A stretch of 64,000 nt of DNA from NCBI GenBank assembly GCA_013239625.1, contig MU053911.1, positions 1,005,590 through 1,069,589 on the forward strand, in the 5' to 3' direction. This document shows positions 4,975 through 60,918 of the stretch, piece after piece (the stretch's first letter is position 1; each line of letters begins with the position of its first letter). Under the pieces are notes generated by a model. That model was not told the origin of the DNA and searched no databases. It saw only the letters and a program-made list of their open reading frames with translations. A program made the translations under genes and the position numbers. The DNA is from Lama guanicoe (Eukaryota).

Positions 4975-5088
4975 TACACACTGCGGTGAGAACTGTGAAA
5001 CAGAACATACACGCGTGCGGCTGAATCACGGCGCTGCGCTCCTGAAATTAACACGTCGGAAATGGACTGTATTTCAATCAGAGATGTG
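4975..5088 (+). mobile_element. Short L1 3' end
   Basis: ctgaatcac...gctg...gaaattaacac...gactgtatttcaat. Confidence 0.6.
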
Positions 5089-5767
5089 AAGAGCAGCAGC
5101 TACAGACGTCACTCTTCCCTGGCTGACTGGTGTCACGCGATGTGAGGGCTTGTCGTCAGATGCACACGCTTTAAGATTTGTGCGTCTTCTGGATGAACCG
5201 ACCCTTTATCGTTACGACATGTTCCCCTTCGTCTCCCATAATATCCTTGTCCTGAAGTCTGTTTCCCTGAAGTCAGTGCAGCCTCCTCGGATCTGTTCTC
5301 CCTTAAATTCCTGAGTGTATTTAGAATAACTGGTCTTCAAGGCCTGTCTGCTAGTTCCCTCAGCTGGAGCTACTATTCCTGGGCCTCTCGAAACTGACTT
5401 TTCTCACCACTGTGAGTCAAATCTCCCTGTTCCCCGCAAGTCTAGTTATTTTATTGACTGCTGGACACTGTGTGTTACCTTGGAGAATGTATGGATTTTA
5501 TCTTCCTTCAGAAGGTTGTGAGTTTTGACTGGACAGGCAGCTGATCCTCCTGAGGCTTCTTTGACACTTTGCCAGAGCGGATCGGGTCTGGCCCTGCCGC
5601 TGTGGCTCTGCATTTCCAGAGCCTTTCCCGAATCCCTGGGTGTGTAACCAGCTGTCTTCACTCTGGCTACCAGGAGCTTCAGTGTCGCACTGCCCTCTGA
5701 GACCTGGGAATTGTGCAGCTTGAAAAGCTCCCCTGAAGTTGTGCATTTCCTGACTGTGGAGTTTCTC

Positions 5768-5988
5768 TTTTTTTTAAAAAAAAATTATTTTAAATTGAAG
5801 TTCAGTTGATTTATGGCGCGGTGTCAGTTTCTGGTGTACAGCGTGGTGGTTCAGTCACACACGTTCACGCATGTACTTTTCATCACAGGTTACTAGCGGC
5901 CCCTGAGCGCAGCTCCCTGGGCCGGACAGCAGGGCCTTGCTGTCTGCCCGTTCCGCACACAGTAGTGTGTACCCGCCAGCCCCAAACC
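5768..5988 (-). mobile_element. Cetartiodactyl-type L1 3' end, strongly GC-shifted
   Basis: Poly(T), then ttaaattgaagt...tttctggtgtacagc...ttcagt...tccctg...ccttg...cccaaac, collinear with the recalled L1 3' consensus. Confidence 0.8.
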
Positions 5989-12844: not shown

Positions 12845-12961
12845 TTAGGAGATGATGGCCGGGGACCACCGGGGCAGAGTCAGATTGTCAGCACTCGCTG
12901 ACCGCTTCCTCGTGGGCCTCCGTAGGTCCTTGTACTTGTCCTCGCACAGGCGAGAGATGGC
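12845..12961 (-). CDS. CCNY: CCNY exon 10 coding part ([38 protein letters not shown])
   Basis: Acceptor ctgcAG; TAA at 12847-12845; retains the Ser326 RSASAD motif. Confidence 0.97.
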
Positions 12962-14369
12962 CTGCAGGGTGACAGAGAGGCCGTCAGGTCAGCCTGGAGC
13001 CCGCGTCCCTCAGCACTGCGAACCCACGGGAGTCCCGCCTGCTCGCCGGCTTCGGACACATCCAGACTCCTGACACCTCCTGGGGACTCCTCATCCTCCA
13101 TCATGGGTGTGTCCGCTAACCCTCTGGTCAGGAAAAGGATGACATCCCACACCTTATAAACTATCTCAAAGGGGCTTCCACTGCTGAGAGAGAGACGAAT
13201 GACATCCTTCCCCCTGACCGGCTGCTGCCTCAGGGTCAGGCGAGGTCTCCACTCAGAGCGCCTGTGGGAGACACTGGTCTACCCTGTGCTCGTAAGCGGC
13301 CGACCTGGCATAGAGATGCTCTTCCTCAGGGAACCACAGGCTGGCTTTCCTGCGGGCCAAGGGGCTGCCAGGGCCCCTCCTGAGCTGGGAGGAGTGACGG
13401 GGCCACCAGCACACCAGGAATGCAACAGAGTGGGCTGGATGGGGACCCACGCTCCTCACCAGCCTAACCACTTCACATGTGTCCTTGCCAAGGCTTGACA
13501 TCACCTGCCTCGGGGCAAGACCTTCGAAGGAAGGGTTTCCTACATCTGCCCTTGAACAGAAGAGCGGCCTCGCCGTAACCGCCACTGGCCACATGGCTGA
13601 GTTCTGGAAACCTCACTGCATTGCGACTTAAACCCAGTGCTGGGCAACCAGTCTTCTCCAACTTCTGCTAAGTTTCTTTCTTGGGACTAATGTACTATCA
13701 GCTTTTTAAAGTTTCATTGATTTTAAATGTTTGCCTCCTTAAGAACCCTCTTCCCCACCTCCTGACTGTTTTGCTGGCAGCTGTGGCCCTGGGAGACCTC
13801 CACTCTGGCCATCCTGATGCTCCCGGGTCTCCCCGAGCCTGGGACAGGACTGGGCCGCTTACCGCGCCTGGCAAAGGTGAGACTTGTGAGGTGAGACCAC
13901 GGCGGTGTGCAGGGCCTCAGCGCCCCTCACCTGCGGAGGGCTCCCCCCTGCCATCTTTCCCGTCAGAAGTGCAAGGCAGGAGAGGCCCGCAGCCTGATGA
14001 CCATAGCCCTGAGCCCAGGAGGGGACAGCGGGGCGGCCCCAGCTCTAAGCGGGCCGTGAAGAGAGCATTTTGAAAAAATGAAAAATGAAAGCATAATCAA
14101 ACCTTTCTGGAATCCCAATTGTTTGGGCCATCTGGTATCTTTTTTCTCATAAAAGTGCAGGCCAGGAAATTTTCTTTGTGGGCTCATGTTTTTAAAAACA
14201 GGTGTTCAAAAAAGGTTTTTTTGATTTAAAAAAAGACTCAACGTGCAGTAAGTAGAAGCCCACTGTTAGGAAGGTCACTGACAACCAGCGGCTGTGCGGA
14301 CTGCACGCGGGCACCATGCCCCATTCCTCCGCGAGTGCGCAGCCTGCCCTGGGCACCCATGCCCCTCAC

Positions 14370-14532
14370 CTCGAGCTTGTGGGCCCTCTCTCGGCTCAGG
14401 GGCTCCAAGGGGAAGCTCAGGTTGTTGGCTTCGGCCAGAGAACGAAGGTCAAAGTAATACTTGGCATAAACGCTGGAGGGGACGTTGATGTTGAACTGGA
14501 GCAACTCGAGGAACTGCCGCTCCAGCTCATTC
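14370..14532 (-). CDS. CCNY: CCNY exon 9 ([54 protein letters not shown])
   Basis: Acceptor ccgcAG, donor GTGAGG, 163 nt; the peptide is visible inside ORF 14238..15233. Confidence 0.97.
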
Positions 14533-16229
14533 CTGCGGGAGAGATGGACAGCGCGGCTCAGCTCTCGGTCCCCCACCCCCGACTGCGGAGACAGAGCCCA
14601 CCAGGGAGAAGAGCCAGCTGTGACCGCTGGGTGGGTGCAGGGTCTGACTGCACATCTCCGTGAGGCCCATTGGCTCAAATGGGAGGGGGGCGGGGCAGAC
14701 GGCACAGAGAACCAAGTGGAGTCCAGGGAGGGCCCATGGGCTCTGCCCTTCCCAGGAAAAGGGGGCGCTGCTGACCTGCCTCCTCCACAGAGCATGCCTG
14801 CAAGGCATGTCAGCAGGCCAGGTGGGCCCGAGAAAGCGCATCTCAAACAAGCTCCCTTGAAAGGCCCGGTGGCCCGCTGAGAACCCTCAACACAGAGCCC
14901 GGTCCACAAAGGAGCCAACCCACTCACACCTGGATGGAGGCGGCAGTGGTGGTGGCCAGGACAGAGCAGCCTACCTCTCAGGGCTGACTGACAGCCAGGG
15001 TGGGGGGTGGGGGCAGGGGGAAGCATCCTCGGTGATGGTTGTCTGTATGCCTTGGTCCTGCCAGCGGGGTGGGGGACCAGGAAGGCCTCCCAGAGGGGCA
15101 GCGGGGCCAGGGAGGAGGGTTGGGGCATGCTGGTCATCTCTCCGTCGTCACTGGAGCCCCGGTCCGAGTGCATCTGCTCCTTGAGGGACCTTGCAGAGCC
15201 ATCGGAGCCCCGGAGGGCACTGCCAGGCCGCACTGCGGCGACACCAGCAGGAGCAGGAGGCAGGGCGGCGGGGATGCGAGCGCGATGTGCATTCCCAGAC
15301 CGGAGCCCCAGGCAGGAGCGACCTGAGAAGCCTCAGCGCATTGTCCTTCCGGCCGGTGCCCTTGCAGTGCAGCGGGAAGACCAAGAGGCCGCACTCAGGT
15401 CCTTAACGCAGGAGCGGATTCCCTTCCTTGCAGCTTCGAGAGAGGAGTTATGCTGAATTTCCCACTCTCAGTGACTGTTATCTGTGTCCCCTTTACGTGA
15501 GATTCAATAAGAGGTCATCCTCCGAAACACGGGAACCAGGTGAGATCTTAGTAAAATGCGGTTAGGCAGAGGCGCTGGCCTGGGACACACTGCCGCCCAG
15601 GGGCCAAGAGGCGCCACCGCGGCCCGCACTCCGGTGTGGGGAAGAAAGCCTCTCTTCTCAGTACAAACGGGAGATAGCCAGTCCGCTATTCCTGCCCCGA
15701 ACGGCACCGGCACCGACACCACCGCCCGCTGCTGAGGGCGCATCTAGGATTACAATCAGAAGGAATCTGTTTACAAGATGGCGGCTCCCCAGTGCTCCTC
15801 AGGGAAAAGCAGCCTTTCTGAATAGTGGAGTGTTTTCTTGAATGTTTCTGTGTAAGTTTGGATGGAAATAAAGATTTTAGAGCTGCTGCATTTTCAAACT
15901 GAAGCCAGACTTAGGAAATAAAAATAATTCCCCAAATTTGAATTTCCAAACTGCAGCAGTCCATATGACAGCTTGCTACGCGATACAAATCAGAAAACGA
16001 ACAGTGACGCGAATGGGCTTGACGGATCTGCTGCCCTCAAGAGGATACTTAAAAACAGTTCTAATGTGAAACTTTGTAATAAATAAGTTCAGGTCAATAA
16101 ACAAAAAATATTTCAGAAATACTTGTCACATTAGATCAACATTGTAAAGAAACCCAATGGAACCCAACTGAATGGCTAACTGCCACTTAGCAACCTGCAA
16201 ATGGGGCCCCAAATGCACCTAAAGGGAGT

Positions 16230-16790
16230 TGTTTTCATCATCTAATAGCCTGTAGGCTTTTCTGGAAAAACATGCTCACTTTAAAGACCAGCCACCATGC
16301 AGCAACCCCACCTCTGGGCACAGACCCAGGAGAGCGGAGGGCAGGGCCCCGGGGAGGTATCTGCACGCCCGCGCTCCTCCTGCTCACGGCAGTGCTGTTC
16401 ACAGCAGCCAGGAGAGCAGGCAGCCCACGTCCGACGACAAGCGGTCTACACACAGAATGGAGTCTTCCCAGCATCAAAAAGGAAGGAAACTCTGACTCAG
16501 GCTACCCTGAAAGAAGCCAGCCACGCAAAGACAAATGCCTCGTGGCTCAACTGAGATGAGGCCCGAGTGGACTCACTGGAGCAGTGAGGTTCTGAGAGAC
16601 GGGAGGCAGAGTGGAGGCCGCCGGGGGCTGGGAGGTGGGGTTGCATGGGGACAGGGTCAGTTTTATAAGAGTCAGAGTCCGGAGGAAGAGCTGGTGACGG
16701 CTACATGACAGCAGGAATGTGCAGAACACCCCGAGCTGTGCCCTGAAGATAGTTTCAGTGGTAAATTCCATACTGAGCATGTCTGTCATG
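16230..16790 (+). mobile_element. Old L1 3' end, GC-shifted
   Basis: Recognisable L1M 3' succession (gcagtgctgttcacagcagcca ... aaggaaggaaactctgac ... ggggacagggtcagttt ... ggtgacggctaca). Confidence 0.65.
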
Positions 16791-17897
16791 GAAAAACCAA
16801 ACAAGGCACCAAGCGAGAGAGAGTCTTCTCGCCAGGGCAGCCCCAACCTGGGCCCGTCTGACGGGCGTCAGTGAAACACGGTGCCCCGACTGCCCTCGTG
16901 ACACGTGCCTCAAAATGTTTGTTTTGAGCGCCAACATCAGCGAGCCCAGCCTTCCCAGCCAGAGCTGCCCTATCCAGAGGTGCATGCAGGGCCCCACCAA
17001 GGTCCTCGGTGTCAGAGACCCTTCAGCTGGAGAGGAGCCTGGGCTCGGAGACACGGGGAAGGCCACCTCAGGACAGCCACACACAGGCGAGGCCAGGAAG
17101 AAGGGGACATGGGTCAGCAGGGCACCGGAAGCAGCACCAAAAAGCACATCTCCCGTCTCTGCATCTGCAACTCGTAACTGTCTCGCCCTGGGGAGCGAGA
17201 AGGGGAGGCCCAGGCCAGCGTGGAGGAGCAGAGGCTGGCTGGGATAAACGACGGCCCCCCACGCCCCCTCCCCCCAGCAGGGGCCCCAGAGCCAGCCTCA
17301 GCCATTTAGCTGAGTGACAGCCAATTCCACTGACTCCTGGGGACTCACAGGGTATCACTGAAAAAGACTGACTTAAGCACTAACTTTTTTTAAAATTCCA
17401 GAAGTGAATCTGCGGCTCGGTGCAGACGGTACAAAATACAGCCTGCGTCCCCACAAGCCTGGCTCCGCAGCCGGCCCTGAACCGCACCGAGTGTGGCACA
17501 AGCCAACCCACCCCTTCGAGTTCCTGCGGAAACCACTCAGTCTGGCCGCTCCAGGGCTAGGAGGCCCCCACACACTCGCCTGCTCTGCCGGAGCAGGGTC
17601 TTGCACGAGGCCTCGGAACACAGAGGACTGCCCAGTGGTGACAGTGAGCGCACGTCTTAGGGGTGCCGGGAGGACCAGCTGAGACATGCAGAAACTGGAC
17701 AAGGCTCGACTCCTGACAAACAGCTTACAACCACTTCTTCGAGGCTTTCAATAAAATAAGGGCTTCTCCAGTGATCCCGAGTCCACGTGAAGACCCAGCT
17801 GGGCCGACGTCTCGATGTGTTAAGGACAGCAGCACAGAAGGCGTCTCCCCGCCAGCCGCGTTTCTCTCTCTCCTTCTGTTCCAAGGCTTGGTGGTGA

Positions 17898-17966
17898 TGA
17901 CGGCTGCATGACAGCGGGAATGGGCAGAACACCCCGAGCTGGGCCCTGAAGGTAGTTTCAGTGGTA
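17898..17966 (+). repeat. 69-bp dispersed copy of 16695-16763
   Basis: 64/69 identical, same orientation, 1.2 kb apart. Confidence 0.9.
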
Positions 17967-18393
17967 TCTGTCGTCTGCCTGTGCCCCGCGGCGCCCTCCG
18001 CAGAGAGCAGGGACAGAAAGGAGAAGCGGTCTGAGGCCCAGGTCCGGCGTCCGCAGGCCTTTCCTCTCTGACCCCACGGGGGGGACGTCCTGGGCTCTCT
18101 TGCTGACCCTGAGCACCACCGCCACCCACATCCCCGGTCAGCGGGAGGGGCAGCTGGGCCACGTCCCCGCACACACACCTCAGCACAGGTGACAGATGCC
18201 AAGGGGCAGAAACAAGGCAGGATTTCTCGCCCCATGCACCTGCTCACAGCCTGGATGACCAGCTCAGAGACCATTTTCACCTTGAGATGCAATCAAGAAT
18301 TTGACTTTTCCTGCTATCAGGAAGGAATTACAGATGCAGGGAGGGCTTTAAGCGTCCGCAGCAGGAAGGGAATCTGTGCAAGACACCCAAGAA

Positions 18394-18598
18394 CACAGAC
18401 CAGTGCCCAAGGGCGGCCCAGAAATGGGCGCCCAGAGCAGCGGCAGCCAGCGGACAGGGGCCAGGCTGGGAGGAGCCAGCGGGCCACCACAGACCCTGTG
18501 CCCAAGGGCGACCCAGAAATGGGCGCCCAGAGCAGCGGCAGCCAGCGGACAGGGGCCATGCCGGGAGGAGCCGGCGGCCACCACGGGCCCTGTGCCCC
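18394..18598. repeat. Tandem duplication, ~94-bp unit x ~2.2
   Basis: cacagac...gtgcccaagggcg...cccagaaatgggcgcccagagcagcggcagccagcggacaggggcca occurs at 18394 and again at 18488. Confidence 0.9.
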
Positions 18599-19084
18599 GA
18601 GGATCCGGGTCTGGGGACACAGATGTGGATGGGCACACGGTGGAACCTCCTCCAGCCAAAAGCTTCCCTGAGGAAGCCAAACGAACAGTATGAGAAAAAT
18701 AGCAAAAACTGAGTCAGAAATGCCGACGAAGTGTAAGGAACTGTACAGGGTTCACCCTGAACGTTCTCCAGAACCTATGGAAGGCTTGGACCCGATCTCC
18801 CACGTCCCCAGCTCTGAGACCCCAACAACGGACGACACAGGGGCAAGGCGACACAAGGCTCTTTTTAAGCAACGGAACTTGTAAAACAGGACAAAAGCAG
18901 TGAAAGTCTCCTCCCCGAAATGGAGTAAGAACAGGTAACATTTTAGCCACCTACTGCCCGGAGCAGGCACTGGGCCTGAGGTGGGTCTGCAGTGGGGACA
19001 GGGCTGGCCGGGGGAACAGGACCTGGGGGGACAGGGCCTAGGGACATGGAAGCGGAGGGGGAGGAGCAGGGTCTGAGCACTCAC

Positions 19085-19251
19085 ATGTCCTCCACCGTGA
19101 TGTCCTTGAGGATCTGGCAGTAGTCCACGTTCCACACTGCCTGGTCATCCCACACCTTTGAGGCCAGCAGGATGGCCCCCAGGACAATCCGCTTCCAGTT
19201 GGCTGGACAGATGTCGATTTCTGCATAGGTCAGAAGCCTCTCGAGGTAAAC
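19085..19251 (-). CDS. CCNY: CCNY exon 8 ([56 protein letters not shown]), cyclin box
   Basis: Acceptor ttgcAG, donor GTGAGT, 167 nt. Confidence 0.97.
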
Positions 19252-19559
19252 CTGCAAGACAGGAAGCCCCCGGGTGACGAGCCAGCGCCTCCCACACCAG
19301 GCAGCGCATGCGCTCCACCTCCTACACAGGTCCCCACGGCCCGATCACTCGCTTAAAAAGTCAAGGGCTCAAGGAGTTGAGGACAGGCGGGCATGAAGGC
19401 GCCGCCAACGCTGGACATGTAGGCGCGGCTGGGCCGATGCCAGCAGCTACAGGCCAGCTCCTCGCTCCACCCACCGCGACACTGGCACAAACCCAGCGAG
19501 CAACCAGAGATCCGACAAGGAGAGCAAACAACGTGAAAGAAGAAACTTTTTTTTTTTAA

Positions 19560-20335
19560 TCTCTACTCTTTTTCATTAAACTTTTTATTTGGATGTGATG
19601 GTAGATTTACACAGTGTTGATAAACCTGGTTTTTATTATGATGGTCAAGTACACACAACGCAAAACGCAGCACTTAACTGTTTCGGGTGTGCGGTTCTGC
19701 GCTGTTAAGAACAGTCACAGTGTTGTGAAACCCTCACCATCCAACTCTTTTTCCAGAACTTTCTTCATCTCCCCAAACTGGAACTCTGTGCCTATGCAAC
19801 CCCCAACCCGTTCCCCCTCCTGCCTCCCTGAATGTGACGACCCAGGTACCTGATGGAGGTGGACTCACACAGTACCTGTCCCTTTGTGACTGGCTCCTTT
19901 CACTGAGAACAGTGTCCCCAAGGGTCACCCATGCTGCAGCCAGTGTCAACGATTCCTTCCTTTTTAAGGCTGAATAATGGTACAGACCACGTTCTGTTTG
20001 CCCAGCATCCATCAATGGACATGTGACTTGTTTCCACTTCTGGCTACTGTGAATAATGCTGCTGTGAACACTGGTGCACAGACGTCCGTTCAAGCCTCTA
20101 CATCTGATTCTTTCTGGTGTGTCCCCAGTAGTGGGACTGTCGGACTGTGTGATAATCTGCTCAGTATTCCGTAGAACCACCACACTCTCCTTCACAGCAG
20201 CTGAACCATTTATGTTCCCACCAGCAATGCACAAGGGTTAGTTTTTCCACATCCTTGCCAATATTTGCCAGTACCTGTTATTTTCTGTTTTTTTTTTAAA
20301 TTATAGTCATCCTAATGCGTGTGAAGTGGTATTTT
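19560..20335 (-). mobile_element. Old L1 (L1M-type) 3' region
   Basis: Motifs ttcctttttaaggctgaataat, ggctactgtgaataatgctgct and ttcccaccagcaatgcacaagggtt. Confidence 0.85.
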
Positions 20336-20639
20336 TAAATGAAAGAATTCCAGCTGAAGTTGTAAAATGAAATCACATAATATAGGATTTAAAACTCGCC
20401 AAACGCAGACGGCAGACATCAGAAATACCCACAGAGCTCATCAACTAAGCTGGGTCACAAGTTAAGAATGCCTTTCAAAGCTTCCCTTAGTAAAAGCCTC
20501 CTTATTGATGTGTTTCACACCTCTCTGAATCATGAATTGATTATTTCCAGTTTTACGTCAAATGCATTTGCAAAGGCATCGACTGCATCAGAAAGAAAGA
20601 ATTTAGTTAAATCAATCATCTATACTTTTCGAACTAGTC

Positions 20640-24333: not shown

Positions 24334-24419
24334 CTGGGGAAGGAGATATTCTCAGGTGACCCAACAAGAGCAACAGAGACATGACTGGCTGGCACCCTGA
24401 CACCCGAGGGGCAGATTAC

Positions 24420-43854: not shown

Positions 43855-43891
<37 letters not shown>

Positions 43892-44080
43892 AAGAAAAAG
43901 AAAAAACAGGACACTATGAACCATCTACAAAACAGAATCAGACTCACAGACACAGTAAACAATCTTACAGTTACTGGGGAAAAGGGGGTGGGAAGGGATA
44001 AATTTGGCAGTTTGAGATTTGCAAATGTTAACCATTATATATAAAATAGACAAATAACAAATTTCCTCTGTACAGCATAC
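43430..44080 (+). mobile_element. L1 fragment (ORF2 C-terminus plus 3'UTR), relatively young, with an expanded internal A tract at ~43860-43889
   Basis: Classic L1 motifs ggagaaggtgtggagaaaagggaaccctcctac, aaatgtccatcaacagatgactggataaag and gcagcaacatggatg. Confidence 0.9.
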
Positions 44081-47000: not shown

Positions 47001-49619
47001 AGTTTGTTTTCCAGAGAAACACATTTTCTCTCTCTTTAACTTTACAGTGAGTCACTAACTGAAACTGACTTTAATAAAAGCAGAATCTACACTTTAAAAT
47101 GAGATACAACAGATAAAAACTCTTACCAAGTTTATGCTAATAACCCGCTGCTTTTCCGTTTAAAGCCTGATTCCTGAGCTAAAGGCAGACTCACAGAGCT
47201 CTGGAATTAAGAACGCAGGAAGTGCGCACAATGCAGACACACGGGAGAGAAGCTCAGTGGGACCGCCCGAGGCCACACACACGCAGCAGCTGGGAAAGCT
47301 CTCACTCCTCTGGCCACTGTCCCTTCCCAAGTGACATTCATTTCAAACAAGACCGTTCCTGCTTCTCTGCTAACAATAGTCTAAAAAGCCAGCTTGTCCC
47401 CCAGTCACAATGGCCCCATTCTGCAGCAGGGCAGAGCGGGCGTGTTGCGAAGGGGCCCCACTCCGTCCTGCCGCAGAGCCCGCCCGAGCCACGACCTTCC
47501 CTGCAGGCGCGGACAGGCCTGTGACACAAGCCCATCTTTCAAAGGATCGGATGTCACAGGGCAGGGCCTTTCTCAGGCTGTTATAACTGTGGCACTTGGA
47601 AATCAGAGTTCAGTCCCTATATTAAATTTCTACTGCTAGAATTCATGTCCCTTCAGGATGAGGGATGTCTGCAAAATTGACATTTTCAGAGATTTCACAT
47701 TTCAAGCAATTAAGTCAGCCTAACTTTAAAATACCCCTTTCTTTAATTAAAAAAAAAAAGGAGGGGGGAGAAAATGCCCTTCTCGTTGTGAACGTTTCCA
47801 CCTTTCACTGCCTGTTACAGGCCTGGTCTTATCTTGCATTTCTAGCAAATGGGGTCTCGTCAGGGAGGTGCTGCTGCCAACACAGCATGAACTCTGGACC
47901 AGCAATCACGACCCCTTGCTGGAGAACAAGCACGGCTGATTCCTCAACAGCCCACAGCGAGACAGCACAAGTGCACCCGCCAGAGACACAAACCAAAATG
48001 AGGTGCAAACAGGGATACAGCAACGCTACGTGAAGACCCAGACACACTTCTGCTGTGTTAACCTGTAAGTCAGACGCTCCCTCCAGCAGCACGGTTAACA
48101 CGTGTCACTGACAAGCAAACACGTGTTGCAGAACGTCCAGGGGAAGTGCAGAGTGCGCTGGCTGGGATGGCCCCACCCTCAATCACATGCCCTTTGACCT
48201 TGCAATTCACGTCCAGCTGCATCACTTCTACTCTTAGGGTCTGTTTTGCCATGAGCTGGAAATCCCTTTTCTTAAGGAGATGCTCCAAGGTTCGAATGTT
48301 CAAAACCTGGATGCCGCGGGGCGGGGTCTAGGACACGGGCACAAGCTGTGCTCGGAACCCTCCAGCCTGTCCTGGGACACGCGGGCGAGGAGCTCCAGGG
48401 GAAGGCATGGGGAGGAAGGGTGGGCACAGGGTGGCAGCCCAGCCCCACAGGCTTCCAAGAGGCCGTCCTCCTGGAGCCCGGCCAGGCCAGGCCAGCCCGC
48501 GTACGTCTGGTCCGCGGTGGCTTCTGCGGCACCTGTCAGAGCCGAGCAGCTGAGACACAGACCACGCGGCCCTGTCTGCAAGTCTACTGACCACGGTCCA
48601 GAGCCAAGGCAAGTGGCCAAGGCTGGACGTCCGTGTGTGGGAATCATCTGGATAAGGACGTGGAGGTGTCACCCCTTCAGGGCTTCGCTGAGACTCGTCT
48701 AACTGGTCTCCAACTCTGACTCGCTTCTCCCTGGGCATCTTCCCCCTGCCCTCTCGTCTTAAACCCGGTCAGTGGCTGCTCACTGCTCCTGGGGTAAATA
48801 CCAAAGGATCACCATCCCTACACACCTGGCTTCACACGGCTCTGCCCACCTCTCCGGGTTCCCCCTCCACCACCCCTACCCCAGGCTCCGGTTCCGGCCC
48901 CACTGGCCTCCGGCAGCTCTGGCACACAGCCTCCCTCCACTCACTGGTGCCCCCAGGCCCCTCTAGGCGGTGCGGTTCACTGCCACAGCTCAGAGTGCAC
49001 CTGACACGCACGTCAGCTCTGCTCTGACGCACCTCCCCGTCCCAGCTGGAACCATCATACAAGCAGCGACAGCATGTTTTTTCAACTTTTTAACCCAATG
49101 CCTGGCATCCAGCAAGCCCATAATAAATGGCTACTAAATGAATAACAGGCTAACATATAATCAGAGAGAATGTGCTGACGTGTGTACAGAAACAATGAGC
49201 CAATCGACAAAGGTGGTCCAGCCTACGCTCACAAGCTGTGACAGAGACCCTCCTCACCTTCAAGAGGAACTGACGGGTGTCCTACCAAAAGAAGGGACGT
49301 CAGATCCCAGCCGAGGGGCCCCTGCCAGGACACAGCGCGGGGCTGAGTCCCTGCACACAGGCAGTCGTCAGCACGTGGTACGCCGTCTTCCTTAAATCTC
49401 AATGAAGGGTGTAACCTGAGCCGAGATTTCAGCCCGTCTTACCAAGGCCCGACAGCCTCCTGCCAACACACTGCCTTGCTCCTGGCAAATCCTAGACGCT
49501 GGTCTCAATAACCTTGTAACCTGTGTTATTACTACATACATGCTTCCAAGGGTCACAGGCAGTCTCCCCTGGGTACACTTCAAGAGCGCGTCTGTATACC
49601 AATAAACATTAGCACATTC

Positions 49620-49800
49620 AGTAACGTTTACGGAGCACTTACTACGAGCCAGGCGTCACACCAGGGGCTCTACATGCATTACTTCAGTTACTTCTCACCA
49701 CCAGGCTCTTTCAGGAACATTCTATCATGGTACCCACTTTAGAGTGGGGAAACTGAGGGCTGGAAGGCTGTGTCACTTGCCCACAGCTACCCACGGGTGT
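49620..49800 (-). mobile_element. MIR SINE
   Basis: gagcacttactacgagccaggc ... ggggaaactgagg ... tcacttgcccacag. Confidence 0.7.
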
Positions 49801-51895
49801 GGGAGCAGCTACAGATCCACGTCTCGGCCACGCAGCCTCCATCACCCTTCCCCAACTTCACCGGACCTCTGCAGCCGACCTGCAGGGGCTCAGCCAGGGC
49901 TTAAAAACAAAAACTTTGTTTTAGTTTTTTTCAAGAGGAGAAAGTACAGTCATTAGCTTCATCAGCCTTTCCACGCCAGGGCAGGCTCTGGCCACACACG
50001 GCGCCAGAGCAGTGGGTGGATCCGGAGAGCTGTCTCCACCGCAGAGTGAACCTGCAGGCTGGACGTAACCACACATGCATCAGAGAGGGGGGTGAAAACT
50101 ACGAAGAGTAATGCAGTCTTTTCTGGAAGTAGCTTCTCCGACTGCACCCTTGCTGGCCTGGGAGGATGCACGCGCCCAAGCACAAGTATTTTACGTCTGT
50201 ATCTGCACTACGGAAACACATTGCTGTGCATGGAAGCAGTGACACCGGCCCTCAGCTCACACAGCTGACCCTCGTCCACTCACTCCTCGTACACCTTCAC
50301 TCCGTCTGCTTTCAAGAAGGCAGCTTCACTCAGGTACTGTGCACACAATTAAACGCACACCCATTCTGAGTGTACACTTCAATGAGTTCTGACAAGTGTA
50401 CCCACCATGTGACCACCGCAATCAAGGTAGTCTGCCCACCCCCCGCCCCACCCACAGGCAGGCCCCATCTGCTGTCACTCCAACCGGGACCCGTCTCCTG
50501 TAGACTGTCACACAAACGGGCACAGAGCGTCCTGCTCCTGCCTGCCCTTCTCACCACGCACCGCTCTGTAAACGCTGCATTGAAAGGTGTGTCGGCTGCT
50601 CTATCTGGTGGAGGAGAGCTTTGTTCCATGATCCACCGGGCAGGCGGCGAGGCGGGTTCAAACCACCCTTACAGGTGCGTGCGTGTGACAACAGCTAAGC
50701 CCGAGCCCAGGGCCCACCTGGAGCGGGTTGCCGGCCATGGTACCAAGGCAGGCTGAAGGAACCAGGCCCAGGAAATACTGGCTCTCAGTGAAACCACGCA
50801 GACTCCCCTGAGCCCTGGCTGCTGCAAACAGGCCCCGAGTGGCAGCAGGTCCTCAGGTCTCCCTGGAATCGTGTTAAGCTTCACTTCCACCTCATTTTAT
50901 GTTTCAGCCTCAGTTTTCCTTTTCCTTTCCTTCCCTTTTCAATGTATGGATCTTACCATGCGTGTTGGCGGGAAATAGACGTGACAGCGGGACCGTGACC
51001 GTCCCTCGGACGGCCCCTGCACCCACGAGTGCATTCTGGGCAGCGGTGCTCACCCAGCTGCAGGCGAGAACCATGGAGGAGCTTGGGAAATGCTGATGCC
51101 CGGGCCCCCCCCCGTGCCGGGACGCAGGCTGCAGGGCCGGGCGGGGAACCCACTGTGCAGTGCCTGGGCAGTGTGCCGGCCCCTCCCCGCTGCCACAACA
51201 GACCCCACCGCGGCCCCAGTCCCTCATCCAAGATCTTAATGCCTCAGTCACTGCAGGTACCAGCTGTGTCCCAGGACAAACTCCAAGCTGTGTCAGGTGG
51301 CTTGAGCAGCAGGTTTTCAATGATGCTTAGTGAATTCGAGACAGGGTCCAGAGCGTTTAATTCCCCTCATCAAGCCCTAAGATGTTACTGGAACCCCACT
51401 TCTGCTCTGCATAAGGAGCAGACACACTTTCCAAGAGGGCCCCAATGTGTCTTAGAAATGTTTTCTAACAGCTGTGGTTCCATCGTCCGGGCCAAGACAG
51501 GAAGCCCCAGGGACATGATGGCTTCTCCTCGTCTCAGCTCAACCCAGTAATTACACAGCGGCCGCACAGCCCGCGGTACCCCCGGCGGGTGAACCGGACT
51601 CCCTCCTCAGAGCAAACCGCAGCCCCCTCCACCAGCGCAGCGCGGCAGTCCACGATGCTGCGCCGAGGTGCAGGCACTCCGGAAAGATTCCGGGCCTCAA
51701 GTTAACGTTTCATTTTTGAGACAAAGAGTTCCAGGAAGATGGATATCAGCTTTAAGGTCAGTGCAACCACTGGCTCAGCAAGAGAAAATTTCCAGGTAAC
51801 ACTTTACTATAACACATTGTTAAAGAAATTTGAAGAGCACTGTACTGCACAAAATCCTGCCTTCCTAGAGTATTTTAAACAGTGTTTGCCCATTC

Positions 51896-52025
51896 TTTTT
51901 TTTTTTTTGAGGGGGACGTAATTAGATTTATTCATTTATTTATTTTTTAAAGGAAGTGCTGAGGGTTGAACCCAGAACTCCGTGTGTGCTAGGCGTGTGC
52001 CCTATCGCTGAGCTACACCCTGCCC
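51896..52025 (-). mobile_element. tRNA-derived SINE, camelid Vic-1-like
   Basis: Minus strand reads GGGCAGGGTGTAGCTCAG (A box) ... GGTTCAACCC (B box) ... AAATAAATAAAT ... CTAATTAC..CCCC + poly(A). It is flanked by a probable TSD, CCCATTC (51889-51895 / 52026-52032). Confidence 0.85.
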
Positions 52026-54884
52026 CCCATTCAGCCTGTTCTGGATGCCTGTCCAAAGTCACCGTGATCAACCCCCAGAGACCGCGTATTAACAGAGAAG
52101 CAGCCACTGAGGTACGCTGGGATATTTGCACCAACACACAGTGAAGCTTGACTCGTGGTGGTTTATAAGGCGTTGGTTTATTTCTCTGTATTTTTGCTGT
52201 CTCCTTCATTATCAGACCAATAGCCAGCTGCCAGCTGGGAAAGCAAGTGACTCAGCACATCTGTGGAGAAGGTTTCAGAGCTAAGGCCTCAGGACCTTTT
52301 CAGAACCAGAGGAAAACGCGTCCCTGCCGGTCCACTCAGATGCACTATGGGACAAGGCTCTGCTGATGCTCTCGGGTGCTGAGTGGTCTGAGGCCACCAC
52401 TCGGACACCCTTCTGAGATGCTGAGAACGCCAGGAGAGAGGACGAGGGAGCGAGCGCTCTGGGAGCCAGAGCTTGGCGGACTCACAGGGGGTCATTCCCC
52501 ACAATTCCAACACCGTCACTCACACCCAAGAGCTTGCAGGGCTCCAGGCGCATTAACTCGCCCGACCCGCACAGCTGCCCCGGAGGAGCCGTGGCTGCTT
52601 CCCACACCAGGTGGGTCAGGACCAAGACTGGTGCGGCACGGGACGGGCAGCAGGACGGCCGCCCTGCCCCGGGGCGGGGGGGCTCGGAGCCAGCGGGGCT
52701 GCCCTCCTCCACCGGGGCCACCGTCCTCCACCACCACTCGCTACTCGTGACTGCTGTTAGTTGCCCGGAAAAGCGACCACTCACTGGAGTTCAGAAAAAG
52801 CCGATCTGAGAATCTTCAAAGGATCACGTCTCTGATGGAGTTCTGGTATTTTTAATCATTTACCTGATGGGGCTACAGCCGGTAACCCAGGAATGAAGGC
52901 AGGCCAAAGCTCTTCTCGGACACAAGCTTCCCTGCATGGCGCTCAAAGGACTCAGGCAAGACACCAAGCTGAGAACTCTGTGGCCACCAACACCCTCGGG
53001 GAAACTCCTTAATAGAACGGCAGCTTGCAGCGCACCCAAGTACCTGCTGCCTGTCACCAACACCCTCAGTACACTTGCCCCTCCCCCAGAAAGCCTCTCT
53101 CGGTAGAAAATGACTAAATAAATGAAAGAAGACGATCTGTGGAAGGCTGAACTGAATGGAGGGCAAACACCACGCCTGCGGCAGGCCAGTCTTACTTTGG
53201 GGGTCCGAGGGAGGCGGGGAGCTCGGCACTTTACCAAGCAGACCCAAAACAGAGGTTCACAAATCGAGTGCTTCTTCATCCCGTTCATTAACGCAGTCAC
53301 TGCAGATGATTTAGCACCACCTAACGAAACCTGAAGTCAGCTTCAAAGACTGCAATTAGGTGAAAGCAAATACTATTTTATTGTGCTTTTAGAGAAAATT
53401 GTTATAAGGGCCTTTACTCTAGCCAGACATTAAATGAGTCAACATTTTTTAACAGATAAAGTAAAGGGAAAGAAACATGTTCAGAAGGTAAAACTGGATG
53501 TTAAAAGGTATTTTGTTTGGAATAGAAAAATTCTCTATCCCTTTAACTCTTAAGTTAAAAAAAAAAAGCTTTGCTTTGTCCCAAACAATGAAAAGTGAGA
53601 AGTCTCTTTCTGGGCCCCATCCATTATAAACCAGAACTGACTAACGGCAAACATAAACTAGCATTACTCCCAAGTTAATAACAGTTCTCAACTGTTTCAT
53701 TATGAACATAATAACTGACATTTTCTGAACGGCTATTAGGTGCTAAGCACCTGGCTTCTTATGCTGAATCTTCTCAAATGCCTGAGTCAGAGGAGGAAAC
53801 AGATCAGAGAGGTGAGGAAGCCTATTCGAAGCCAGGACCCCAGATCTGATCCAAACCCAGGCTCTTTGCTAAATGCCACGTCTGCCAGGTTGAGGCGTGG
53901 CTGTGCTCATGTGAGTGGGCTAACCCATCTGGGGACCAGGGGGCAGGGGAGAGGATTCCAGAGCAGAGGAACCAAGATCCAGCTAGCTACGTGACGCAGA
54001 GGTTACGGAAGGCCTCGGAGCCAGCTCTCAGTCCAGCCCGGGTCCTCAGCAGCCAGACCAGCGGGGACAGGGCCCACCCACCCCATGCCTCTGTGGTCCC
54101 ACGTGCACAAGGGCACGTGAAGGCAGCACCTTTGACTGAGGAGGGGCTGCATCTCCCAGGACAGGCACAGTGTCCAGCTTAGAGCAGGGGGATGACTCAG
54201 ACCCCAGGCACTGGCCATCGTGTGGACCAGGACGGAGGGCAGCCAGGCAGGGAGCAGACAGAAGGCAGGCGTCCTGCATGAGGACGAGTTACTGCACCCA
54301 CAGCAGTGGGACAGGGCGCCGAACAGCAGGAGTGCAGTTTGGGAAAGCAGACCAAAGGGGCAAGGAGAGGAGTCCCGGACAAGAGCCCCGGCGCTCCCGG
54401 TGGGCAAGCAAGCTCTGGCTGCCACGCTGGAGGGGAGAGCACAGGAAGGGCTCCCGGGTCAGACCGGAGGCACCAGCCCCACAGTAAAGCAGGGGACATG
54501 AGCTGGGGCTGAGTTGGGGGGTCAGCACATGACACCCACGCAAGATTAACGGTGCCTCTGTTCTGCCCCGCAGCATGGGGACAGGGATTTCCAGAGATGA
54601 GAACGTCGCTGAACGCCGGTGAGACCAGGAATGCCGAGGAAGGAAGGAGTTTCCTCTCCCCACACGCGGCCCGAGAAAGAAAAGCCGAGAAGAGCACGGG
54701 AGCGGGCCTCCAGGAGGGGACTGTCAGGCGCCCATGGGGCTGCACCCCCAACCTCGGCCAGGCCCTCCGGACTCTGGCCCGCACCCAGGACGCAGCCCCA
54801 GCATGGAGCAGGCACCAGGGCAACACGGCCCGGCTCATTTTAGATGACAGGCCCATCCACCCAGCGGGTTGCTCACGGAGAATC

Positions 54885-54992
54885 AGACGGGAAAGAGTAA
54901 GAAACGAGCATATGGATGTGCATGCCTGCCTGGGGCATGACGCGGGACACCAGACGCTGACACAGTGTGACTAAGCTTCAATTTAAAAAAAA
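54885..54992 (+). mobile_element. Short L1 3' end
   Basis: gacaccagacgctgacacagtgtgac...cttcaatttaaaaaaaa. Confidence 0.65.
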
Positions 54993-56363
54993 TTACATGG
55001 AAATGCTCACGTGTACACTTGGCCACGGCGAGCTCGGGTCTGGGGTGTGACTTGAATTAGGACGCAGTGACACACCGCTCCCCTCAACCAAGGAAGACCT
55101 GGAAATGCGAATTCAGACGCATTTTCATCTAGATGCCAAGTCCGTGGTTAAGAATCTCTCCACTCACACTCGGCCAAGTCTGACAGCAAAGCTGCAGCGT
55201 GAGGGCTGGTGTTTTTTTTTTTTAAGTTTACTTAGCATTCAGTTTCTATTTTTAGGTGAGACTTTGTTTTTATTTTCAAATGAGATTCTGCATTAAGATG
55301 GTGATTTTCCTGGTGATCCATTATCAGGGACCCCACACTCCACTCTCCAGAATCCCCATCACAGGTGTGGGTTTCACCCCATTTACATCACACTCCAGAC
55401 ACTGTCATCTTTTCTTAAACCTCAAATTGAAGACGCGCCAGAAGAGTGGGTGTAAAGTCACCAGAAGCTGCCTGTGTGGGTCAGGGCATAAAGCACCCTC
55501 ACGGCAGCTTCACACTTTCCCGAGAAGCCAGTGGCCCCCGTGAGAAAGGCCCAGAACACCCGGGAGAACCCAGACCCTCGAGCTGCCCCTCCCCACCAGG
55601 GCCCCGGAGCCAGCCTCACTGCACACAAGGCAGACAGAACCAGAGCCTTCTTCCCACAGGCGGACACGCACCGCGCGGGCACTGCTGTGCACACTCCCAC
55701 CCACGAACAAGGGACTCAGGATGCAGCTTCTCTACAGAGCAAAGAGGGTCACGTGAAAATGTCTGGGATATATATACAAGACAGTGCTCCCACGAGCTTC
55801 TCTGTACAAGAGAGCCTGGGAAACACCAGCAAGACAGGCCAGCGCCCCAGTTAAGAGCGAGGGGAAACCAAGGACAGAGGTCTTCCTGGAGAGAAAAACA
55901 GAACTGAGCAAGGAAGAATTCACTCATCTGCAGGACCAAATAATGACAGCCTATTCCTTTTTTCTTTTAATTAGGAAGTTTGTTAGGAATCGGGAACCAG
56001 CCAACCTACTTCCTAACTTCAGCAGGGGGAAGCCAGTTGAAACAATGCTGTCAGAAGGCATTAGAACCTACAGCGTTACATATATAACATATATAACAAA
56101 AATATATTCATGTTTATACACGCGAATGACTAAGAACGACACTGAAGTGGGAGCTGTGTCTATCAGGCCTAATTTTGGACGGTCTCCAAATCAGTACTTG
56201 GATCACTCGACCCCGATTTAATGCCTCAAACACATGGCAAAGCAGGGCACGGTCCCACGTGACCCAGCTCTCCCTTCCGCCCCAGCGCCGTGCCCACGCA
56301 CCCGAGGCGCCCACCCACGTTGGTCACTCCCACAGGGTCCCAGGGCCTCCTCCCCCCCTCTCC

Positions 56364-56981
56364 TGTGGGAGCCCATGACTGGGTTAACAAATTGCAACAG
56401 ACCCCAGCTGCCTGTCACCTTTAAGAAGAACGAATGTGCTTAGTAACCGCTTTGCTAGCAAGCACCTGTGCGTCCACACTCCTGTCTCCTTGCCGTGAAA
56501 GTGGAGACAACGCCTTGCTTGCACATTTGAGGCTTTAGATAGCACTCTGCTCCCTGCACAGCAATGACCCAGGCCCTCGGCTATAGACGACCCAGGCCCT
56601 CAGCTATAGACGCGGGGCGTGCCTGCTGTTAGATGGTCTGTTATCCCCCAGACGAGGGACTGGCTGGTCCCGCGGTCGTCTTTGTAATTAAAATATCTGA
56701 AGAGTATACCTTGCTCCCGTCTCCCCATGACTTCCCTGAAGGTAAACGAAGCCTCTGGACTCCCTGTGGACTCTACAGTCTCGATCCCACCCTGTCTTTC
56801 CCTAAGTTCCCGCATCCATCACACAGCTGCTGGTGACTGTTCCTTTGTTGTACACAATAAACGTGGGAGCATTTGAGAGGCTCATGGAGTTGGTCCCCGA
56901 CTCCCTCTCGCTCTCTTGACTTTCTACGGTCTTGAGTAATTCACTCCATCTCAGTGGGACTTCCACCGGTCAGAACCCACG
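56364..56981 (+). mobile_element. ERV solo LTR (ERV2/beta-like) with 6-bp TSD
   Basis: Termini TGTGGG...CCCACG (canonical CCCACA); perfect flanking duplication CTCTCC at 56358-56363 and 56982-56987; AATAAA near 56856; 618 bp. Confidence 0.8.
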
Positions 56982-57482
56982 CTCTCCCGTCTCGGGTCCA
57001 CCCTGGCCGGCTCTGCCGGTGGCCTGAAATCTCTGAAACACTTCTTCGTGCCATTTCTTTGCTTGATTTTTTAAGACCTACAGAATAAAGTCCAAATTCC
57101 TCAGCATCACATCCTATTAGAGGTAACCCACAAGTAGCCTCAACCTACTACTTACTAAATTTTCTTCAAGAACTCCCAGTAACATATTGCATTGATGCAG
57201 TTTCACTTGTTTTTTTGTGCTAGGCTTCATGTGGCTGTTCCCTCCGTCCTGGCCGCCCACCCTCCACATCGAGGAGGCCAACGTTCGTGGGTTTCTGCAG
57301 GTGTGACACTTAACTAGGTACACAGCTTCCTTCCGAGGTCCTGCCCTTTTCAGGGGTGACTGAGGACATTCATCTCCCAGTGTCACCAAGGACCAGCATG
57401 AAGGCCTGGGTCTCTTCCAGTCATTCACTGTCCAGAGGGCGGGAGTCCTTTCGACTGACAGAAAGCGAGTCAGGGAGGAGTC

Positions 57483-57891
57483 TGTCGGTGTCATGATACC
57501 ATGTACACATACACACCGTATGCGGAGAGATGGCTACTCTGATGGCGACTCTGAAGCTTTATTAAGTTGCACAGTCTTACACAGCAAAGAAGAACGACAA
57601 GGGAAATGGTTAACAGGCAGCGTCTGGCTCAAGGTCAGAAGACCCTTCATGTTTTGGTAAATCATGTTCGTGTTGGCACCAGCGAGCCTTACAGCTTATC
57701 AGGACAGAATGTATGAGAAACGGCTACTTTACAACATTCTTCGTGGACTCAGGCGGCTGTGCCTGTCTTAGGTTGCCCTCTTTGGGGATCTTACCCATCC
57801 TTGGCTAGCCAGCCTTCTCACCTCTGAGTCTGCAGCTTTCTAGAACTTTTTTTTACCATTCCAGCCCAAGGCTTGTTCCCTGGTTCCCACA
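57483..57891 (-). mobile_element. Second probable solo LTR, in sense orientation to CCNY
   Basis: Minus strand begins TGTGGGAACC and ends CCGACA, with AATAAA (57563-57558) ~75 nt before the end. No clean TSD. Confidence 0.55.
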
Positions 57892-58329
57892 GTCGGGAGC
57901 CTACAGAGTCATGAGAGGAGCCACAGGCTTGGGAAAGGTCCGGGCCACATCATTACCGTGGTATGTCCAGACTCACTGAGAAGATGGCAGCGAGGGCCAC
58001 GCAGAGCAAGAGCAGGCGTCCCTGTCCTCTGCGGGGCTTGTTTATTATGTGATACTCTGCACCAGTGACCTGACTGTGAGCTTCCTCTCCAGACAGCAGG
58101 TGTGTCTGACGGATGGGTTGGAAGGAGGCCCACAGCCCTGCTCACCTGGCCTCGGTGCCCTGAGGGTCACTCCAGCCATGACTCCTCTGCAAGCAGAGTA
58201 AACCCATTCACAGAAGTGGCTGTGGGGCCCCACTCCAGCCTGGAGGAGCCCAGGGAGGAAGCGTCGGCCAGCACAGAGGGAACAGCTCTGAAGCCTAGCA
58301 CAAATCCACAGTCTGAGACCCTCTCCTGC

Positions 58330-58470
58330 AAAGGTTCCCACCTCTGGGTGCTCACTCCCCAGTATAATCCCCTTCCCTGCCTGTGGGTGGGACCTGCTTC
58401 TAATCAACAGAATACAGGTGAGGAAAAGGCTACCAGGTCTGCGATAAGGCTGTGACTTTGATCTGGCTCT
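58330..58470 (+). mobile_element. MaLR (MLT1-like) LTR fragment
   Basis: cccacctctgggt...taatccccttccc...gtgggtgggacctg...cttctaatcaacagaata. Confidence 0.5.
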
Positions 58471-60744
58471 GAGGAAGTTTCTCCATTAGGAGACATCTGC
58501 ATTCCTACTGAGCAAATGGAAGGACTGGCTACCCAGGAACAATGTCAAATACATTAAAAATTAATAACAAAAAATACCACTCCGTGGTAATATTCCTTCT
58601 TGGGTTTCATAAGCTGCACTTCTTGCCACGAATGTTATAAGTATCTACTCATGTGCTACTTCCAACTAGTTGCCAATCAAAGAAAAAAAAATACAAAATG
58701 ATGCTACTGACTCCGTGTCCACCACTTTCCTGGAAGAAACATGTGCTTCCTTCGACGTGATCACCAGGGAAAAAGGAAACTGCACCTGCAGAGGGCCCTG
58801 GGGAAACAACACGGTCACAGACAGGCACCCTCTACCTCCTTGCCATGCACATCCCACTGTGCATGGACTTGGGAGCACAGAGCAGAGCCCCCACCTCGCT
58901 CACCCTGGCTGGTCCACCTCATCTGTTGTGTCATCTGTCCAGAGGGTCAGCCAAACGCTGCTGGAAACGAGCCCATCACTGACCACTGGTGCACGGACCC
59001 CAGAGCACTTACTCTGTGCCAGGCCCAGGCCTCCAGCCCTGATCCCCACCTTGTAAGTGGCGGTGGGTGGGGTGACAGGACATAACCACCCCACGCCACA
59101 CCCAGTGAGACGCAGAGCTGGATGCAAACCCGAGTTGCCCAACTCAGGCTGGTCCTCTAATACTTACACAAACTTCCTAATTATGTTTCATTACATCTAA
59201 AGTCACTCCTGGATGTAAGGATCCTTTCAGTTACACAACTAGCAGGGGAAGTAAAAGCATGACTTCCAATTCCGCAGGGCAGTTACATGGCTCACGACGC
59301 ACCTGAGAGCATCTGAGACTTGGTGGAGGAAGGCAGGGAACGAAGGCAGACCCTGCAAAGGCAGAGCCGGTGAGCAGACCCACAATGGAGGGTCCCGCTG
59401 GGGGACCTGGGCACCAGAAGGCCCCAGGGCTAAGGCCAGGGATGGTGAGTCGCCCACAGTTGTGAAGAGAAGCAGCTAACACCAGGCAGACCTCACAAGA
59501 TTAACTCAGCAGAACCACCAGAGCTGGCCCGCGCACCAGCTAATCAGACTCCTTGTACCAACAGCAGAGAGGAGGCCACCTGAGCCCTGCCCACTCCTCC
59601 TGGAGGACCCAGCCCTCCCCTCCTCCACGACGCCTCTCTGAATTATTTCCAATCTTCCCCTTCATACGAGCTGTGTCCTCTGAGCCTTCAAAGCACTGAA
59701 GAATCTGCCACTGGGGAAAAACAAATTAAAACAGGCCTTTTCACTTTTAAATCTCACAAATGAGCAGTCTCACCTCATGGCTGCAACTTGGCTTCTGCTG
59801 CCATTGATGTCTTTACGGACACACCAAAACTGCCACCATCAGCTCATCCAACGGAACAGAACTCACTCGGCCTTCATTCCCCCTTGAACTTCATCCTTTC
59901 CCGGGCCCCTCCAGCTGCCTCTCCCAGTTCCTGTCCTGACTGGCACCCTTCTCCACTTGACCCCCAAACCGAGGCACGTCCTCACATCTTGCCCCAGGTC
60001 CTGCAGCCAAATGCCCTGTCCTGACCCTGCTCAGCCCGAGTCCCACATTGAAAACTGTGGAAAGGATGGAAAAAAACAGTCCCAACGGGTGCAGATTCAG
60101 TCGGAAAGGGCAGGTCAAAGTGAGGCTTGGGGAGCCTCCCAGGCCAGGGAGCACAGCGAAGGTACCCAAGGAGGGAGGGGCTTGTTCAAGGTCGCGTCTG
60201 CAGGCTGGCCTGGCAAGATGGCGAAGGAGGGGTCCTGAAAACAGAGAAGGAGGCCAAGCAGACTACTGTGTCCAGCCTCGGGAAAGAAGGCCAGGAGCCA
60301 ATGTGGCAAGAGCGGGAACAGAAAGGAGGGGGTCCCCTGCAACTGGTCAGCGGGCCATAACCAGGCACCGCGCTGCTTCTGTGGCCCCTCCTGGGCTGGC
60401 AGGGCTGTTAGCAACTTCACCCATATGCGGTCCCTGCTCTGAAGGGCCACACAGGCTGGGTGGGGATGGCAGGAAAAGAAATCCAGTCTTTCTTTAAAAA
60501 CCTCACAGCAAGGCAAGTGAAGCAAACTCCTGCGGGGCCATCAACAGTGAGCAGGGTTTGAGAGCTTCCATCCCAAGGGAAGACAAGCAGCGACAAGGAA
60601 GGCGAGCAGCATTTTAGCTCACCTGTGGACGACCGGGCGGCCACACAGCCAGCGACCATGAGCGGACGGGCCCTCATCTATCACGCAACGTCCCGAGCTC
60701 GCCAAGTGAAAGTGCTCGCGATGTGCGGATGCCAGCCACCGCAA

Positions 60745-60918
60745 GTAATTAACAGGCAAAACACAGCTTCCTCTGCATGGCGCGGAGGACCACACTCGAC
60801 ATCTGGTAGTAACCTATCACGAAAAAGAATGTGAGGACAAGTACACGTACGACCAAGACATGGAGCTGTACCCCAGAAACTGACACATTGTAACCAACTA
60901 TACGTCAGTTAAAAAAAA
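60745..60918 (+). mobile_element. Short L1 3' end
   Basis: gtagtaacctat...gctgtaccccagaaactgacacattgtaac...ttaaaaaaaa. Confidence 0.75.

Follow-up and report, generated by a model that had tools for sequence, protein, structure and literature searches.

Why do long-dead L1 retrotransposon ends in one stretch of guanaco (Lama guanicoe) DNA carry G or C where related L1 copies carry A or T? The stretch in question (contig MU053911.1, positions 1,005,590 to 1,069,589; all 64,000 nucleotides are called the window below) holds the cyclin Y gene, CCNY, and has a GC content of 0.526 and a CpG observed/expected ratio of 0.49. An earlier note, made from the sequence alone, had ascribed five such L1 3' ends to intense and sustained GC-biased gene conversion (gBGC), plausibly on a small or subtelomeric chromosome. 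Comparison with external copies confirms a strong excess of A/T to G/C changes, probably best explained by gBGC, and amino acid changes in the same direction are seen in one exon of CCNY. The five copies are listed here, with W for A/T and S for G/C, and with changes given per site.

4975..5088, plus strand: L1 3' end, GC-shifted; W→S 18/46, S→W 2/14; hit of the external-copy profile at 4988–5077, E 1e-3
5768..5988, minus strand: L1 3' end, GC-shifted, the clearest case; W→S 55/122, S→W 3/43; external-profile hit at 5791–5987, E 2e-18
35860..35975, plus strand: L1 3' end, GC-shifted; W→S 20/50, S→W 3/15; external-profile hit at 35862–35955, E 4e-5
54885..54992, plus strand: L1 3' end, GC-shifted; W→S 20/47, S→W 4/14; homology only via other window copies
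60700..60918, plus strand: L1 3' end, GC-shifted; W→S 44/121, S→W 9/45; external-profile hit at 60769–60911, E 7e-11

The assignment to the L1 3' untranslated region relies on collinearity with the external loci, L1 3' ends that have further L1 sequence on their upstream side and terminate in an A-rich tail. With the reversed window as a null, the best hit of the external-only profile has E 4.2. The segment 54904–54983 is not significant with this profile (E 1.8) and reaches E 1.7e-9 once the profile also takes in the other window copies but not the segment itself; the external-only profile also matches a young L1 at 43984–44077 (E 3e-10). The copy given earlier as 60745–60918 is an L1 3' end, but its 5' limit lies about 45 bases further out, at 60700. 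The strings quoted in the earlier note are present in the window, that of 5897–5960 with an offset of about one base, and the pair placed near 44060 and 60765 starting at 44059 and 60764.

External L1 copies were obtained by searching public metagenome contigs with an exact motif derived from the window, which yielded 10 loci (L001–L010); the same motif had no matches in viral contigs. Seven distinct loci were kept, each an L1 3' end whose surrounding DNA is mammal-like, with GC 0.35–0.44; L003 and L008 (near-duplicates of L002) and L004 (a chance match) were dropped, and L005 was split into two rows round an insertion, so that the controls comprise eight rows. Judging by their SINE families, the control copies may derive from pig and whale. 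The plurality reference, which adds the young in-window copy, required at least three rows and at least 60% agreement, with leave-one-out for the controls and with the 21 search-motif columns removed. The consensus given in the earlier note was not used in any count.

The five copies have GC 0.47–0.53 and 5–11 CpG each, against 0.27–0.37 and 0–2 CpG in the seven external copies. W→S changes are seen at 157 of 386 sites, compared with 67 of 615 in the controls (Fisher p 2e-27), about 3.7-fold per site; thus both the G/C letters at A/T positions and the CpG gain described earlier are borne out. S→W changes (21/131 vs 46/213, p 0.26) do not differ significantly. GC-neutral changes are not raised, neither W→W (23/386 vs 28/615, p 0.38) nor S→S (3/131 vs 5/213), and with A↔T rates so alike, window copies and controls are probably of similar age and misalignment is less likely. 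The apparent equilibrium GC, u/(u+v), with u and v the per-site W→S and S→W rates, is 0.72 (0.64–0.80) for the five copies and 0.34 (0.27–0.42) for the controls, and nearly the same with an external-only reference. One point of the earlier note needs correcting: in raw counts, gains of G/C outnumber losses in these AT-rich L1 ends even among the controls (67 vs 46), and only the per-site rates reveal the effect. Taken alone, the copies at 4975 and 5768, which share the structure of the external ones, give W→S 73/168 (p 2e-19) and S→W 5/57 (p 0.035). The change is spread over about 56 kb of the window.

Excess is seen both at W sites where a CpG cannot form (110/261 vs 62/506) and where it can (47/125 vs 5/109), and CpG retention as the sole cause is ruled out by the non-CpG counts. 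In absolute numbers A→G leads all other changes (79), and in CCNY exon 4, described below, five of six changes are A→G on the coding strand, as A-to-I RNA editing, or another strand-specific process acting on L1 RNA before insertion, might produce. Per site, however, A→G (79/238, 0.33) equals T→C (46/148, 0.31), and the excess extends to transversions towards G/C (32/386 vs 19/615, p 5e-4). Editing is rejected on this strand symmetry and retains next to no probability.

If the five copies belonged to a GC-rich camelid L1 subfamily, their G/C letters would be inherited, not rewritten. Consistent with this, 49 W-site changes recur in half or more of the remaining window copies, and those at 35860, 54885, and 60745 have a common shorter 3' structure that the control copies lack. 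However, with shared changes dropped the W→S excess survives (45/193 vs 67/615, p 4e-5; S→W 8/66), of the 54 columns that every one of the five copies covers, only 2 hold G/C throughout, and the young copy, considered next, is AT-rich. Read depth in four whole-genome runs (at 80% likeness) is only about 2-fold up for the 54885 copy and more than 20-fold for a SINE, a weak argument, as the records are filtered. This explanation, named in the earlier note as a possible refutation, is thus very improbable.

Other repeats of the window were compared as well.

43430..44077, plus strand: L1 3' fragment, less diverged and presumably younger, AT-rich, unshifted; internal control
16336..16565, plus strand: older L1 fragment, GC 0.60; W→S 44/114, S→W 8/67; coordinates by eye, weaker reference
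19836..20256, minus strand: older L1 fragment; W→S 59/167, S→W 21/94 over 19836–20175; E 2e-23 to the young copy
22611..22935, plus strand: older L1 fragment, GC 0.56; W→S 64/156, S→W 22/94; coordinates by eye, weaker reference
21669..21941, plus strand: L1 ORF2 remnant, GC-richer at codon positions 1–2 than each of four external ORF2-like fragments
51895..52030, minus strand: high-copy SINE, on which many contigs of each run pile up; 8 of 30 letters differ from the consensus of other copies, 4 each way

The young L1 shows W→S 6/43 and 14/115, S→W 7/22 and 14/72, and u/(u+v) of 0.39. Its unshifted state shows that the camelid source element is AT-rich, and that the bias is not visible over the lifetime of the young copy. 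The three older fragments give u/(u+v) of 0.61, 0.64, and 0.76. For the ORF2 remnant, the counts at codon positions 1–2 against the four external fragments are 28:8, 32:22, 28:14, and 16:8, these comparisons not being independent. The remnant matches proteins including P0252, which in turn matches solved LINE-1 ORF2; an exhaustive search returned five weak matches, among them P0253, which has no alignment to the window or the external loci, and as a query the remnant found nothing in the homologue search, Pfam, or solved structures. The young L1 also has a 47-nt A-rich run mid-element (43860–43906) and stops abruptly at 44077 without a 3' terminus.

Present-day variation was considered in five haplotypes, the window and the contigs of four runs over 44100–56200, each run differing from the window at 35–52 letters in 12.1 kb. 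The four are from a list of 24 runs, 18 of which contain a sampled intron stretch; all 18 carry 0.81–0.93 of its words, so none is as distant as a Camelus outgroup would be. Among the 40 of 105 variant places tallied there are 38 W/S variants: 26 singletons, with minor A/T in 22 and minor G/C in 4, and 12 doubletons (8 and 4, respectively). CpG transitions make up 12 of the 22 minor-A/T singletons. The u/v ratio from singletons is 0.21 (0.05–0.62), or 0.30 (0.05–1.18) for non-CpG variants; for L1 divergence, which covers different stretches and times, it is 2.54 (1.6–4.2). Hence divergence is W→S-biased but rare variants are A/T-biased, which points to a fixation bias, or to a mutation bias that has since ceased. 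Fixation bias fits better than present mutation bias. The likelihood for the present-day gBGC strength B is flat over the whole range tried, about -3 to 11.75.

A past local mutation bias, either a higher rate of A/T→G/C mutation or a germline hypomethylation that protected CpG, since stopped and with no fixation bias, would account for several features: relative to W→W, W→S is up about 3.5-fold while S→W keeps about 0.7 of its ratio in the controls, the pattern expected of extra W→S input; the CpG observed/expected ratio is high for mammalian bulk DNA; and the young L1 is unshifted. On the other hand, the rare variants are A/T-biased with abundant CpG transitions, so CpGs still decay; hypomethylation alone cannot raise the non-CpG W→S changes; and a mutator that would increase A→G, T→C, A→C, and T→G at once while sparing A↔T is not known to us. 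We regard a vanished mutation bias as improbable. The same two options, fixation bias and vanished mutation bias, are weighed for accelerated human exons, where discordance between divergence and polymorphism is used as evidence of gBGC (Berglund, Pollard, Webster 2009, PMC2631073).

Does the bias reach functional sites? CCNY runs through most of the window.

12845..63689, minus strand: CCNY (cyclin Y), ten coding exons, open frame of 341 amino acids, all introns GT–AG, G+C at third codon positions (GC3) 0.77
63689–63536, 36976–36902, 32173–32139, 28890–28790, 27239–27204, minus strand: CCNY exons, 5' half
24477–24420, 24333–24214, 19251–19085, 14532–14370, 12961–12845, minus strand: CCNY exons, 3' half
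28790..28890, minus strand: CCNY exon 4 (101 nt), with I94T, Y98C, Q113R, N115D, Y118C, and I120V; contains the S100 14-3-3 site

Exon 1 as a query matches cyclin Y proteins, and the window protein is identical to a pig cyclin Y entry at 333 of 341 residues (97.7%). Relative to eight other artiodactyl entries it has seven private replacements: D31E is GC-neutral, and the other six fall in exon 4, so that 34 of the 341 codons hold six of the seven (post hoc p 6e-6). Two alpaca RefSeq entries have the same residue at each of the six exon-4 positions, which supports a camelid origin of the window, inferred to be South American. Conservation was assessed in 169 distinct proteins aligned across the segment at at least 80% identity, out of 250 fetched; Old World camel CCNY is not among the listed entries. 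Gln113 and Asn115 are kept in 167 of the 169, the two exceptions being the alpaca entries, and Ile120 in 166; Tyr98 (149) and Tyr118 (152) are otherwise mostly replaced by His or Phe, and position 94 is variable. By the shortest codon route, Y98C, Q113R, N115D, Y118C, and I120V require one A→G each and I94T requires T→C; thus all six need W→S, with a chance of 1 in 64 were the direction even. W→S change is therefore seen on neutral and functional sites alike, in dead L1 copies and in CCNY exon 4. The exon-4 cluster is a new observation of the present analysis; no literature on gBGC at this camelid locus or on the exon-4 replacements was found, although genome-scan tables and supplements or subscription journals may contain it.

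The segment has a known function. Phosphorylated S100 is needed for 14-3-3 binding and CDK16 activation (PMC4613515), and the engineered double change Y98R+S99A lowers the affinity of the phosphopeptide for 14-3-3 (PMC13168255). Ile94, Gln113, Asn115, Tyr118, and Ile120 are not named in the main text of the latter, cryo-EM paper. The predicted structure of alpaca CCNY, with a mean pLDDT of 41.5, is too poor to use (it puts positions 118 and 120 in a helix).

Strong clustering beside a functional phosphosite is also what positive selection on the 14-3-3 docking segment would yield, the GC-rich region then being coincidental. Also in its favor, the neighboring exons 5 and 6 have low GC3 (0.42 and 0.50, compared with 0.98 in exon 1, 0.82 in exon 4, and 0.79–0.82 in exons 8–10), and the intron GC flanking exon 4 is unremarkable (0.44–0.57). 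Against adaptation, all six replacements need W→S in a locus whose dead repeats carry the same bias, and exon-specific gBGC episodes giving such a pattern are documented in human and rodent exons (PMC2631073, PMC12290510). An adaptive origin of the exon-4 changes is therefore unlikely.

Several observations weigh against gBGC, or limit its reach. A constant B predicts a clear drop in S→W, but between the five copies and the controls this rate shows no significant decrease. With shared changes dropped, the interval of u/v (0.9–4.7) includes 1. The young L1 at 43430–44077 lacks a GC shift, and the SINE at 51895–52030 is balanced, 4:4 over 30 letters. The control for the older fragments is noisy, its external rows giving 0.29, 0.34, 0.52, and 0.63 against 0.61–0.76 in the window. 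The L1 controls are non-camelid, and their selection by an exact motif favors less diverged copies. The variant places tallied are all ones where run X11 differs from the window, and the minor allele is assumed to be derived. Finally, the ancestral codons assumed for exon 4 were deduced from protein sequence.

Expressed in log-odds, the shift in equilibrium GC amounts to a mean B near 1.6 (1.2–2.05). The W→S rise is larger and the S→W fall smaller than a constant B would give, which may reflect episodes, or errors in the non-camelid reference. Accordingly, of the wording in the earlier note, gBGC as the likeliest cause stands, with its direction and its spread over about 56 kb supported by the counts against controls; "intense" is not established at such a B, and neither is "sustained", as the young L1 is unshifted and polymorphism leaves the present strength unconstrained. 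The per-copy comparison of W→S with S→W that it had proposed was run and gave the excess, although approximated with copies from other mammals instead of camelid ones.

The gBGC explanation can be put as follows. The CCNY region would have recombined often for part of camelid history, with gBGC dominating its evolution: where heteroduplex formed at meiosis in a heterozygote, A/T:G/C mismatches would be repaired towards G/C, and G/C alleles would thus be fixed preferentially, whatever their effect. The average B of about 1.6 would probably have been reached through shifting episodes, because the loss of G/C to A/T fell far less than a constant B predicts, and one such episode may have fixed the clustered exon-4 changes non-adaptively. 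Recombination as the cause is here inferred. gBGC is a known process, of which this locus is a new instance, and the repeat signal alone, though strong, is ordinary for a GC-rich mammalian region.

The excess might also be nothing special to the locus but a general background of gBGC on the small or GC-rich camelid chromosomes, or in the whole camelid genome; this overlaps in mechanism with the explanation above and differs in scope only. All eight control rows come from other mammals and from DNA of GC 0.35–0.44, which leaves room for it. Less compatible with it are the AT-rich camelid L1 source element and the SINE, whose other copies agree at about 0.9 with their consensus over 30 letters while the window copy is off at 8 (the stretch being chosen for mismatch). 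Such a background is possible, with a smaller but appreciable share of the probability.

As for the chromosome, the alpaca CCNY protein entries derive from a 35.8-Mb contig, and human CCNY is on 10p. Alpaca chromosome 35, and chromosome 16 in part, correspond to human 10p (PMC6598621, Table 3). The small-chromosome location of CCNY in camelids, proposed in the earlier note, is therefore plausible; the subtelomeric one is conjectural.

Comparison with described systems shows partial likeness in each case. Like the accelerated human exons (PMC2631073), the locus combines one exon with clustered W→S replacements, a bias in the non-coding DNA on either side, and a stronger W→S bias in divergence than in polymorphism; unlike them, it is camelid, and the bias extends over about 56 kb of non-coding DNA, with dead L1 copies taking the place of orthologous alignments as its source. 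Rodent exon episodes of the Riffis type (PMC12290510) likewise affect a single exon of a conserved gene in one lineage, with raised non-synonymous AT→GC change; as described there, they are defined by a cluster of synonymous AT→GC changes, while here the putative episode is read from amino acid changes, and the GC3 of exon 4 is no higher than that of exons 8–10. In the GC-rich regions of gerbils (Dai, Pracana, Holland 2020, PMC7574485), regional GC-biased change also reaches conserved proteins, but the camelid locus is much milder, with CCNY so close to pig, GC 0.53, and one exon affected; the gerbil combination of many divergent proteins and extreme GC is not seen in the window, which has one full gene in view. 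Mammalian subtelomeric GC enrichment with faster protein evolution (PMC8336415) shares the high regional GC, the amino acids with GC-rich codons, and the attribution to gBGC, though its species list, in the text available, includes no camelid. PRDM9-independent hotspots (Joseph et al., 2024, PMC11161765) share equilibrium GC as a footprint of recombination, but are described as kb-scale peaks at hypomethylated promoter-like islands, whereas the shifted copies lie 3–58 kb from the CCNY CpG island, and the CpG-transition variants suggest methylated DNA in the window.

On a bolder reading, which we consider doubtful, a small camelid chromosome would carry a broad, still active domain of high gBGC, with an equilibrium GC of about 0.7 far above the present 0.53, a mild counterpart of the gerbil regions, and would have forced five replacements on a segment of cyclin Y whose conservation extends from fish to mammals. 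One of them sits two residues ahead of the phosphoserine that 14-3-3 binding requires. If this reading is true, the camelid protein would be a poorer activator of CDK16 or rely on compensating changes, a directly testable gBGC load in a kinase-activation switch. The value of the locus is in the pairing of dead repeats, as a neutral read-out, with five changes at near-invariant sites. As the complex of cyclin Y with 14-3-3 and CDK16 is solved and the binding assay is simple, it offers a cheap test of whether gBGC-fixed changes are harmful, neutral, or compensated. It also cautions that scans for positive selection could pick out camelid CCNY wrongly.

Other features of the gene and its surroundings may be added. 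In CCNY exon 1 (window 63600–63689, minus strand), T5A and Y26C, both to G/C codons, are also present in pig, ruminant, whale, and hippo entries, which points to an earlier W→S shift in exon 1, on the artiodactyl stem. The alpaca RefSeq isoforms P0144 and P0146 both lack the normal exon-1 N-terminus encoded by the window; other isoforms may have it. A short first exon with a splice donor lies at 192–255 on the minus strand, its 21-residue frame (193–255) having no Pfam match; by its sequence and the gene order beside CCNY, it is probably that of the connexin GJD4. At the other side, an old endogenous retrovirus is described between CREM and CCNY in artiodactyls, with camelids lacking its env reading frame (PMC9604959); it is expected just beyond the window end (64000). 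Within CCNY intron 1, at about 56300–57900, LTR-like and adjoining retroelement-like sequence is recognized by eye. The introns also contain GC-rich tandem duplications at 18394–18597 (95-nt unit) and 30380–30535 (43–56-nt units), and an inverted repeat with 30-nt arms, 30 nt apart, lies within old L1 at 22439–22528. A 72-nt local duplicate (16692–16763 and 17895–17966) is 92% identical, and at five of the six differences the first copy has A/T where the second has G.

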